Sequence record: MW822011
From: Shigella phage TB004
DNA length: 64,000 nucleotides
Reading direction: 5' to 3' (one strand)
The notes under the pieces are model-generated. The model saw nothing but the letters and a program-made list of their open reading frames with translations. It was not told the origin of the DNA and searched no databases. The position numbers were made by a program, and so were the translations under genes. Positions 60,344-62,234 of this stretch are shown piece by piece (the first letter of the stretch is position 1; every line of letters starts with the position of its first letter).

Positions 60344-61372
60344 ATGTCATCAATACCTTGGATTGATAATGAGTTTGCATACCGTGCATTAGCTCATTTA
60401 CCTAAATTCACACAAGTAAATAATAGTTCAACTTTTAAATTACGGTTTAGATGCCCTGTTTGTGGAGATTCAAAAACCGACCAAAATAAAGCCCGTGGAT
60501 GGTATTACGGCGATAATAATGAAGGAAATATTCATTGTTATAACTGCAACTATCATGCACCAATCGGAATATATTTAAAGGAGTTTGAACCTGATTTATA
60601 TCGTGAGTATATCTTTGAAATAAGAAAAGAAAAAGGTAAAAGTCGTCCAGTAGAAAAACCTAAAGAACTTCCTAAACAACCTGAGAAGAAAATAATTAAA
60701 TCTCTTCCGTCATGTATTAGATTAGATAAACTGGCGGAAGACCATCCAATTATAAAATACGTAAAAGCTCGTTGTATTCCAAAGGATAAATGGAAATATC
60801 TTTGGTTTACAACCGAATGGCCTAAATTAGTTAATAGCATAGCACCAGGAACATATAAAAAGGAAATACCTGAGCCTCGTCTTGTTATTCCAATTTATAA
60901 TGCTAATGGAAAAGTTGAGTCTTTTCAAGGACGTGCATTAAAGAAAGATGCTCCCCAAAAATATATCACCATCAAAGCTTATCCTGAGGCAACAAAAATC
61001 TATGGTGTCGAACGGGTTAAAGATGGTGATGTATATGTTCTAGAAGGACCTATAGATTCGCTTTTTATTGAAAATGGTATAGCTATTACGGGCGGTCAAT
61101 TAGACCTAGAAATTGTTCCATTTAAAGATAGACGTGTATGGGTTTTGGATAATGAACCTCGTCATCCTGACACTATTAAACGAATGACTAAATTGGTTGA
61201 TGCAGGAGAAAGGGTTATGTTTTGGGACAAATCTCCCTGGAAATCAAAAGATGTTAATGATATGATTAGAAAGGAAGGTGCAACCCCTGAACAAATTATG
61301 GAATATATGAAAAATAATATTGCGCAGGGATTGATGGCTAAAATGCGGCTATCTAAATATGCTAAGATTTAA
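60344..61372 (+). CDS. 61: DNA primase gp61
   Basis: 342 aa, zinc ribbon CPVCGDS...CYNCNYH plus TOPRIM-like core. Confidence 0.92.
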   Translation: MSSIPWIDNEFAYRALAHLPKFTQVNNSSTFKLRFRCPVCGDSKTDQNKARGWYYGDNNEGNIHCYNCNYHAPIGIYLKEFEPDLYREYIFEIRKEKGKSRPVEKPKELPKQPEKKIIKSLPSCIRLDKLAEDHPIIKYVKARCIPKDKWKYLWFTTEWPKLVNSIAPGTYKKEIPEPRLVIPIYNANGKVESFQGRALKKDAPQKYITIKAYPEATKIYGVERVKDGDVYVLEGPIDSLFIENGIAITGGQLDLEIVPFKDRRVWVLDNEPRHPDTIKRMTKLVDAGERVMFWDKSPWKSKDVNDMIRKEGATPEQIMEYMKNNIAQGLMAKMRLSKYAKI

Positions 61373-61569
61373 ATTAACCCAACTAAAGCAAATGCTAAAT
61401 CTACGAATGTATCAAGAGTAATTACCGGAATACTAACGCCATGAGCAATAGCAACTGGCGATAAAATAAAGTTCCAGAGTAAAATTCCTATCATAGCAGA
61501 AATAGTAAAAGCTATACGTTTTTTATTACCTTTGATGGCATCAACAAGTGCCATTAATTTTTGTACCAT
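61369..61569 (-). CDS. small membrane protein on opposite strand
   Basis: 66 aa, two TM helices; AGGAGG RBS 7 nt upstream; stop overlaps gene 61 stop. Confidence 0.55.
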   Translation of the reverse strand: MVQKLMALVDAIKGNKKRIAFTISAMIGILLWNFILSPVAIAHGVSIPVITLDTFVDLAFALVGLI

Positions 61570-61609
61570 GCGTCGTCCTCCTTTAAATTAAATATTTATC
61601 GCAAATTTT

Positions 61610-61650
61610 ACAAAATTTGTTTACTTTCTCAGCTTGCTGTGGTATTATAA
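61610..61650 (+). promoter_or_regulatory. early promoter
   Basis: GTTTAC -35, TATTAT -10 upstream of 61674 ORF. Confidence 0.5.
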
Positions 61651-61673
61651 AATAAACTGCTGAGGATAATATA

Positions 61674-62234
61674 ATGATTAATAAAATTGTGCATGAAATG
61701 GCTTTAAACGGAGATTCATATAAAATATCTGCCGTAGTTGAGAATTTCATACTTAATAAAGTAAAAGAATATTTCACTGATTGTTCAGTTAGTTATCAAG
61801 AAAAAATGGTTTTAACTGACGATACTGAAAAATCAAATAATTTGTTTTGTTCGAATTTTACAACTAAGAAGCGTACTAGAAGATTTGATATTGTTATTTC
61901 TCGCAACGGTAAAAAGCATATAATTGAAATCAAACATCAAGTTGGTGGAGGTACAGCTATTGATTCTGTTGGAATATATTTAGAAGATAAAGATAAATTA
62001 AAAGAATACACAAAAACTGAAAATCCTGTGTCATTGATGATATTAGATTTTTTGCCATGCGGATATTATCCGCGTAATAGGTGGACAAAAAGAGAATCAT
62101 TTACTGATAATCCAACCATCCAAGCAAGGTTTAATGAATATGCTAAATCACAAAACGTGTTAGTATTACTATCAAATAAATATGATGAAGAATTATATAA
62201 TTCGTTTTTTGCTGCAATAAATGAGAGAATATAA
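61674..62234 (+). CDS. PD-(D/E)xK nuclease-like protein, translationally coupled to dam
   Basis: 186 aa; motif [18 protein letters not shown] (D...E-x-K); stop overlaps dam ATG. Confidence 0.45.

Follow-up and report, generated by a model that had tools for sequence, protein, structure and literature searches.

Shigella phage TB004 (sequence record MW822011) carries, immediately before its DNA adenine methylase gene dam, an open reading frame (ORF) of 186 amino acids (aa) whose predicted product resembles a type II restriction endonuclease, and the two genes probably form a restriction-modification (R-M) type cassette of T4-like phages that acts on GATC. The window analyzed here is a stretch of 64,000 nucleotides (nt) of this Tequatrovirus (T4-like) genome, oriented along early transcription, in which the genes are ordered sp, a 61.2-like gene, 61.1, primase gene 61, the interval that holds the ORF, dam, 56, and soc. 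Few DNA methyltransferases have been studied as thoroughly as the Dam enzyme of T4, for which crystal structures and detailed kinetics are available, and mutations in T4 dam are not known to cause an obvious phenotype. The finding of a restriction-enzyme-like partner for this textbook methylase in close relatives of T4 appears to be new, while virus-encoded R-M systems as such are already known. A coupled nuclease-like partner offers a testable reason for dam, which is self-protection against the phage's own nuclease, and, if this is true, a virulent phage with hydroxymethylcytosine (hmC) in its DNA joins the short list of viruses with an R-M system of their own.

An AlphaFold2 model of the 186-aa protein, computed from the family alignment, has reasonable confidence (predicted local distance difference test score, pLDDT, 78.6; predicted template modeling score, pTM, 0.79). 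It has the predicted alpha-beta-beta-beta-alpha-beta core fold of the PD-(D/E)XK nuclease superfamily, and a Foldseek search with the model matched solely PD-(D/E)XK nucleases. The closest structural neighbors are orthodox type II restriction endonucleases, the nearest of which is MunI (which recognizes CAATTG, not GATC), and the predicted structure is closely similar to those of the EcoRI/MunI-like type IIP endonucleases. In the model, E23 lies in the helix formed by residues 15–33, D72 in the strand of residues 67–77, and E85-I-K87 in the strand of residues 80–88, which places the D...(D/E)-x-K signature of the superfamily on beta2 and beta3 and an acidic residue in the first helix. These catalytic positions (E23, D72, E85, and K87), together with H88, Q89, and G93–S98 (G-T-A-I-D-S), are invariant in 10 of 10 sequences, down to 29% identity. 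A PD-(D/E)xK-like core had been proposed for this ORF in an earlier note made from the letters of the sequence, and the model, the Foldseek matches, and the invariant residues bear it out.

The motif EIKHQ..GTAIDS also resembles EAKHQ..GNAIER of EcoRI and EIKRQ..GNAHER of MunI, the latter two having been checked in the PDB sequences, and hhalign aligned FDIVI..IEIKHQ of the phage protein with PDFAI..GEIKRQ of MunI. However, the N and R that contact bases in GNAxER are replaced by T and S in the phage GTAIDS, and recognition of AATT is therefore not expected. The loop between the motifs is also 11 residues longer in MunI than in the phage protein. Searches of all PDB chains with the ORF sequence and the family profile gave no match, EcoRI and MunI included, and a search of NCBIfam with the ORF returned noise alone. 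Judging from the model, the 186-aa protein is probably a compact, endonuclease-like protein of the EcoRI/MunI-type PD-(D/E)XK fold, from which we infer nuclease activity. If the protein is active, this compact enzyme would be new, and its sensitivity to N6-methyladenine (m6A) and hmC would be of interest.

The ORF has a full-length match to PHROG 8706 (E 1e-114), a family labeled as of unknown function, and is annotated as a coding sequence (CDS) in many phage records; all database records for it read “hypothetical protein”. A 66-aa ORF on the opposite strand (dam.1, described below) is likewise an annotated CDS in many records and matches PHROG 2024, and neither of the two ORFs arose by chance. 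The 186-aa protein is encoded nearly full length in ~154 phage records (tblastn), and full-length homologues occur at 63, 62, 58, 56, 49, 41, 31, and 29% identity. In comparison with the ORF of phage JB75, 10 synonymous and 4 nonsynonymous differences (Sd 10, Nd 4) give a ratio of nonsynonymous to synonymous substitution rates (dN/dS) of ~0.09, and in distant pairs the proportion of nonsynonymous differences (pN) is far under that of synonymous differences (pS), a pattern indicating that the ORF is under purifying selection. A decaying pseudogene, or a chance ORF without function, could be suspected from the two deletions of the ORF, its frameshift in T2, and its absence from most of the genus. 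However, the substitution pattern in close and distant pairs, the full-length homologues at 29–63% identity with an invariant active site, the ORF's own ribosome-binding site (RBS) and promoter candidate, and the intact 186-aa frame in ~150 records speak strongly to the contrary; this explanation is extremely improbable and effectively refuted by the conservation.

The promoter candidate before the ORF was found by a consensus scan and has 9 of 12 consensus matches plus a TG extension. Its sequence is kept in T2, the JB75 record annotates a promoter at the same place, and it was lost through the deletion in T4; it may serve as a promoter for the ORF. Near the 3' end of the ORF, a run of T may be prone to slippage. 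With 6 T, as in the window, the frame gives the full 186 aa and the TAATG overlap with dam, whereas the 5 T found in T2 (contig L014, ~2032–2036) and in the T4 remnant cause a frameshift that ends in ..SFLLQ and a stop, with a 13-nt gap before dam. The remnant in phage KarlGJung has 8 T (contig L017, ~1291–1298). Contingency loci have been reported in T2 and T4, although dam is not mentioned there (preprint 10.1101/2025.10.21.683753).

The linkage of the ORF to dam is the strongest functional evidence for an R-M cassette. The Dam protein of the window matches Pfam PF02086 (D12; E 1.8e-50) and is identical to T4 Dam at 251 of 259 residues (97%). In the PDB, it matches the T4 Dam structures 1yfj and 1q0s and, at a greater distance, E. 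coli Dam and DpnM (2dpm). Because of the 97% identity, the window methylase is assigned the established GATC specificity of T4 Dam. The TAA stop of the ORF (62232–62234) and the dam ATG have one base in common (...ATATAATGCTAGG), as the earlier note had read from the sequence when it likened the arrangement to an R-M operon. This likeness is supported by the position of the homologues, all of which, where the context is readable, lie directly 5' of a D12-class methylase gene or overlap it. Three contexts were found: in Tequatrovirus and related contigs, the pair lies between primase gene 61 (with dam.1) and gene 56; in Klebsiella phages of the genus Jiaodavirus, it lies between a denB-like gene and ndd, with a 7-nt overlap; and in the metagenomic contig L005, it lies directly 5' of an rIIA homologue, with a 20-nt overlap. 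The reading frames overlap in a further metagenomic pair (L004) as well. Co-oriented and adjacent nuclease (R) and methylase (M) genes, kept together as in type II R-M systems, are therefore present in all three contexts. The identities of nuclease and Dam drop in step (63/71, 56/71, 44/61, and 35/53%), so the ORF and dam act as one mobile, co-evolving module.

The nuclease ORF is polymorphic at the 61-56 site, and the same pair is found at two other sites. The free-standing homing endonucleases of T4 (e.g., SegF beside gene 56) are likewise accessory nuclease genes between conserved early genes and are polymorphic in T-even phages. The 186-aa protein might accordingly be a homing-type endonuclease like those of the T4 seg/mob genes, one that cuts cassette-less T-even genomes near 61-56 in mixed infection, after which the ORF and dam would be copied in by recombinational repair, with Dam as a passenger or as a protector of the target site. 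This is improbable, because a homing enzyme depends on a single target site whereas the pair occurs at two other, unrelated positions, and because the strictly kept overlap with a methylase is foreign to seg/mob genes. Moreover, the T4 seg/mob enzymes are of the GIY-YIG or HNH type, whereas searches of Pfam, PHROG, and NCBIfam gave no GIY-YIG or HNH match for the phage nuclease, which has a predicted PD-(D/E)XK fold with orthodox type II restriction endonucleases as closest structural neighbors, invariably has a methylase partner, and occupies several different sites.

As a separate observation, the contig that encodes protein P0002 (L012), which is 63% identical to the ORF product, has an extra 93-aa ORF (4010–4291) between dam.1 and the nuclease ORF, for which a Pfam search gave no match, and a 122-aa ORF between dam and 56.

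Comparison of the 61-dam interval across T-even genomes revealed three states, with the ORF deleted in T4. Approximately 506 records (Tequatrovirus) match the flanks of the locus. In the first state, both the ORF and dam are present; this applies to 145–146 Tequatrovirus records in one piece, T2 included (154 records have the ORF by tblastn). In the two Klebsiella phage loci examined and in the contig encoding the 63%-identical protein (that of phage MX01 is likewise 63% identical), dam is present in each. In the second state, the ORF is lost and dam is kept, which arose through at least two independent deletions. The T4-type deletion of ~550 bp is flanked by the short direct repeats TCGCAAA and TCACAAA, takes the promoter candidate and all but the last ~80 bp of the ORF, and has its junction in 33 records, including T4, RB55, RB59, and wild isolates. 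In the KarlGJung (Bas37)-type deletion, codons 1 to ~121 are gone. The third state, with neither gene, is that of the majority and includes T6 and RB3. RB3 reads CCTCCTT followed directly by ATTGCTTTATATAT, so that the dam.1 RBS is joined straight to the promoter region of gene 56, and the gene order in T6 is the same. Both borders of the accessory segment have short TTAA(A)TTAA-like sequences.

Among the Tequatrovirus records matched, none had the ORF without dam. The nuclease gene was thus not found there without the methylase gene while the methylase gene may be solitary, a pattern that stems from few independent events and is the one predicted for an R-M pair of the toxin-antidote type. 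The comparison indicates that the accessory unit consists of the ORF and dam, which move together, and that the nuclease half has been lost repeatedly. It likewise indicates that the solitary Dam of T4 is a secondary state, resulting from the ~550-bp deletion that left ~80 bp of the partner gene. Orphan methylases commonly arise through loss of the R gene. The standard strains T2, T4, and T6 represent the three states, as dam is accompanied by the ORF with an altered tail in T2, stands alone in T4, and is missing along with the ORF in T6, and these strains therefore provide a ready genetic system. Phage-induced m6A has classically been found in T2 and T4 DNA, not in T6 DNA, in agreement with the states of the locus.

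At the sequence level, the sole recurring relationship of the 186-aa protein is to the DpnII/MboI family of GATC enzymes. Six of eight members of the phage family match the Pfam DpnII profile (PF04556), with a score of 17.9 bits for the window protein and a best score of 22.5 bits (E 8.3e-5) for the member P0009, against a gathering threshold of 23 bits. The matches span only positions ~143–233 of the 278 in the profile, and a PADLOC match to REase_II covers the corresponding coordinates (E 7.8e-5). Alignment by hhalign to a DpnII-family alignment gave E values of 3.8e-4 to 5.9e-4 at a probability of 29–36%, both profiles being shallow; the DpnII-family alignment had been seeded from a DpnII sequence, which scored as a full-length member (335.7 bits). 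In this comparison, the phage core region was aligned with the DpnII-family core RFDFVI..IEVN..GSGSK, and phage E23, D72, E85, and GGGT were paired with the invariant E152, D201, E214, and GSGS of the DpnII family. The helix glutamate, RFD(I/F)VI, IE(I/V), and G(G/S)G(T/S) match with equal spacing in the two families. The methylase halves are also homologous (T4-type Dam versus DpnM, 2dpm, E 1.6e-12).

On the other hand, DpnII enzymes have ~288 aa and an ExN motif plus a later K, whereas the phage protein has 186 aa and a canonical ExK. The DpnII systems are bacterial, with the methylase gene first in the order dpnM-dpnA-dpnB, whereas the phage pair belongs to a lytic hmC phage and has R before M with overlapping frames. 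The 186-aa protein is not filed as a member of the DpnII family and instead represents a small family of its own within the restriction-endonuclease fold, possibly derived at a great distance from DpnII-like enzymes. A truncated DpnII remnant was considered and rejected on account of a size like that of MunI (202 aa), the complete core fold, and purifying selection. An exhaustive profile search of 1.84 billion representative proteins gave 12 matches, all of them phage, metagenomic, or spurious low-complexity sequences, and no bridge to bacterial restriction endonuclease families; a second search with a more diverse alignment added nothing. A scan of the 185,579 bacterial and archaeal species genomes of GTDB found no relative of the 186-aa protein, and IMG/VR provided two further loci. 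As far as these searches indicate, the nuclease-like family is very small and known from T4-like phages only. Structure prediction thus points to a restriction-endonuclease fold, with the DpnII matches of the profile searches remaining below threshold.

This distant relationship leaves room for a repurposed restriction fold. The protein could be a nuclease that recognizes something other than GATC and, for example, helps to degrade cytosine-containing host DNA in the manner of EndoII and EndoIV, or a non-catalytic DNA-binding protein, and its linkage to dam would then reflect shared ancestry or a shared promoter only. The similarity to DpnII is sub-threshold and confined to a generic catalytic core, the nearest structure recognizes CAATTG, the Jiaodavirus pair adjoins a denB-like endonuclease IV gene, and the GATC sites of the host are already methylated, which limits the substrate for a GATC-specific enzyme. 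However, a non-catalytic role is at odds with the catalytic tetrad and KHQ..GTAIDS loop that are invariant to 29% identity, and a shared promoter alone is insufficient to account for a pair that is kept with overlapping frames at three locations, down to identities of 35% (R) and 53% (Dam). In addition, dam persists without the ORF, whereas the converse is not seen. A repurposed fold is therefore considered unlikely, though not so far-fetched as a homing function.

For the R-M cassette that we favor, the following mechanism is proposed. One early promoter would yield a bicistronic message of the nuclease ORF and dam, and ribosomes that finish at the nuclease stop would re-initiate on the ATG of dam and so link the synthesis of Dam to that of the nuclease. 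The nuclease, probably a homodimer like MunI, would cut unmethylated GATC or a site that is related to or contains GATC, while Dam would methylate the phage's own GATC sites, including those in hmC DNA, through replication and so act as the antidote. The most plausible target would be co-infecting T-even relatives that lack dam, which make up the majority of the genus, and another candidate is the rapidly replicating, under-methylated DNA of other phages.

Several points weigh against this mechanism. E. coli DNA already carries Dam methylation, the enterobacterial host being Dam-positive, and glucosyl-hmC DNA is refractory to most type II enzymes; if the nuclease were unable to cut modified T-even DNA, Dam would be unneeded for self-protection. 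The similarity to DpnII is below the Pfam cut-off (17.9–22.5 versus 23 bits) and limited to the catalytic core, the phage protein lacks the ~125 N-terminal residues of the DpnII enzymes, and the three most divergent homologues have no DpnII match, which leaves the pairing with Dam as the main ground for GATC specificity. Model confidence is lowest in the invariant GGGTAIDS loop, with pLDDT <50 at residues 92–101, and the model is therefore uninformative on specificity; the low confidence would fit a segment that becomes ordered on DNA. The nuclease ORF is dispensable, given its two deletions and the C-terminal frameshift in T2, and the missing state of an ORF without dam is drawn from closely related genomes and few independent events. 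Full-text literature searches gave no description of the nuclease ORF or of dam.1.

The frequency of GATC sites was considered as a possible trace of the cassette. The window has 73 GATC sites versus 197 expected from trinucleotide frequencies (observed/expected ratio, O/E, 0.37), which makes GATC its most depleted 4-bp palindrome, the next lowest O/E being 0.72. In RB3 (1–50000), which lacks both dam and the nuclease ORF, the O/E of GATC is 0.35. GATC is avoided across the genus, whether or not a genome has the cassette, and depletion as a footprint of the cassette in this genome was rejected because it is equally strong in the cassette-less RB3. In a bolder version of the proposal, Dam of T-even phages would be the antidote half of a GATC restriction weapon or selfish drive that cuts dam-less T6- and RB3-type genomes in mixed infection, T4 dam would be a relic of it, and the genus-wide depletion of GATC (O/E ~0.36) would be its footprint. 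We advance this version tentatively, as conceivable rather than likely.

The closest analogue among virus-encoded R-M systems is CviAI of chlorovirus PBCV-1, a GATC R-M system (M.CviAI A581R with A579L) that is expressed early (PMC7248222). As proposed for the phage pair, a lytic virus has its own GATC m6A methylase within a viral R-M system. However, the host of PBCV-1 is a eukaryotic alga without GATC methylation, so its DNA is a clear target, whereas the enterobacterial host of the phage is Dam-positive. The nearest comparison at the locus itself is the solitary Dam of T4, the same methylase (97% identity) at the same position, which is not solitary in TB004 and ~150 others.

Beside the cassette, the 66-aa ORF on the opposite strand overlaps the stop of the primase gene tail to tail. 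The earlier note had described it as a membrane ORF with an AGGAGG RBS, and this reading holds. The ORF matches PHROG 2024 (E 4e-30) and is annotated as dam.1 in RB3 and T6, from which we take the name. It occurs in 692 phage records, in each case beside the primase gene, including T4, T6, and RB3, and with ~50% identity in Mosigvirus-type phages. In T4, dam.1 is intact at NC_000866 17738–17935 (+) and is unannotated in both RefSeq and AF158101, which show the 61-dam gap as empty. The remark in the earlier note that T4 has no gene between 61 and dam is accordingly correct for the annotation, where the nuclease ORF is missing because of the deletion in the T4 lineage, but not for the sequence, which keeps dam.1 intact along with the 3'-terminal ~80 bp of the ORF. 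Similarly, the suggestion that the interval is an accessory insertion applies to the ORF and dam but not to dam.1, which is conserved independently of the cassette. A role of dam.1 as a toxin or holin-like partner in the cassette was rejected, because genomes that lack the ORF and dam (RB3, T6, and Mosigvirus-type phages) retain it, and it is absent where the pair sits elsewhere. It is instead an independent, conserved gene for a small membrane protein. The motif GATAAATA, 23 nt 5' of the dam.1 ATG, agrees with the T4 late consensus TATAAATA at 7 of 8 positions, and RB3 has the counterpart AATAAATA 22 nt 5' of its dam.1 ATG, which suggests that dam.1 is transcribed late. The features of the region are listed in Table 1.

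Table 1. Features between primase gene 61 and gene 56 of Shigella phage TB004, in positions of the 64,000-nt window.
Feature	Position	Strand	Remarks
Primase gene 61 (gp61)	60344–61372	+	342 aa
dam.1, small membrane-protein ORF	61369–61569	-	66 aa; ATG start; antisense to early genes; adjoins the cassette
AGGAGG RBS of dam.1	61577–61582 (+ strand cctcct)	-	7 nt from ATG
Accessory segment (promoter candidate, ORF, and dam), approximate	61584–63012	+	Missing from RB3-/T6-type genomes
Late-promoter-like motif GATAAATA	61593–61600	-	Read from sequence
Segment missing in T4-type genomes, ~550 bp	61606–62155	+	Alignment of window and T4
Early-type sigma-70 promoter candidate (T4 early-type) before the 186-aa ORF	61620–61648	+	TTTACT, 17 nt, TG-TATTAT
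Shine-Dalgarno sequence GAGGA of the 186-aa ORF	61662–61666	+	7 nt 5' of ATG; read from sequence
186-aa nuclease-like ORF	61674–62234	+	ATG start; PD-(D/E)XK restriction-endonuclease-like; PHROG 8706; proposed R half
Catalytic/recognition core, R69 to S98	61878–61967	+	D72, E85-I-K87, then KHQ and GTAIDS
Run of six T near the 3' end of the ORF	62205–62210	+	Length sets whether the ORF reaches the dam start
TAATG stop-start overlap of the 186-aa ORF and dam	62232–62236	+	Candidate translational coupling signal; read from sequence
dam	62234–63013	+	D12-class N6-adenine DNA methyltransferase; proposed M half
Gene 56	63076–63594	+	

A 64-aa ORF with a GTG start (61583–61777, - strand) lies antisense to the promoter candidate and the 5' end of the nuclease ORF and has a weak match to a LITAF-like zinc ribbon (E 0.055). 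It is probably spurious as a gene, since it spans the promoter candidate, has a T2 indel inside, and is deleted in T4. A scan of 59000–64000 against Rfam found no RNA family.

Downstream of the cassette, the sequence right after the dam stop (63013–63075) contains ATTGCTTAT...GATATAAT, which corresponds to P(M)16.53, a MotA-box middle promoter. This promoter is annotated in the historical T4 record X01416 before gene 56/“69” (oriA region), and it is kept in RB3, where it abuts dam.1. The 56-soc junction is a second polymorphic site that adjoins the cassette; the gap in the window (63595–63666) has no segF homing-endonuclease gene, whereas segF is present at this junction in T4, and two small ORFs take its place in T6. 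The 61.2 position 5' of the primase gene is also variable, with a 203-aa ORF in the window (59564–60175), a 118-aa ORF in JB75 (L002, 320–676), and ORFs of 210 aa and 118 aa in GEP001 (L003, 1186–2176).

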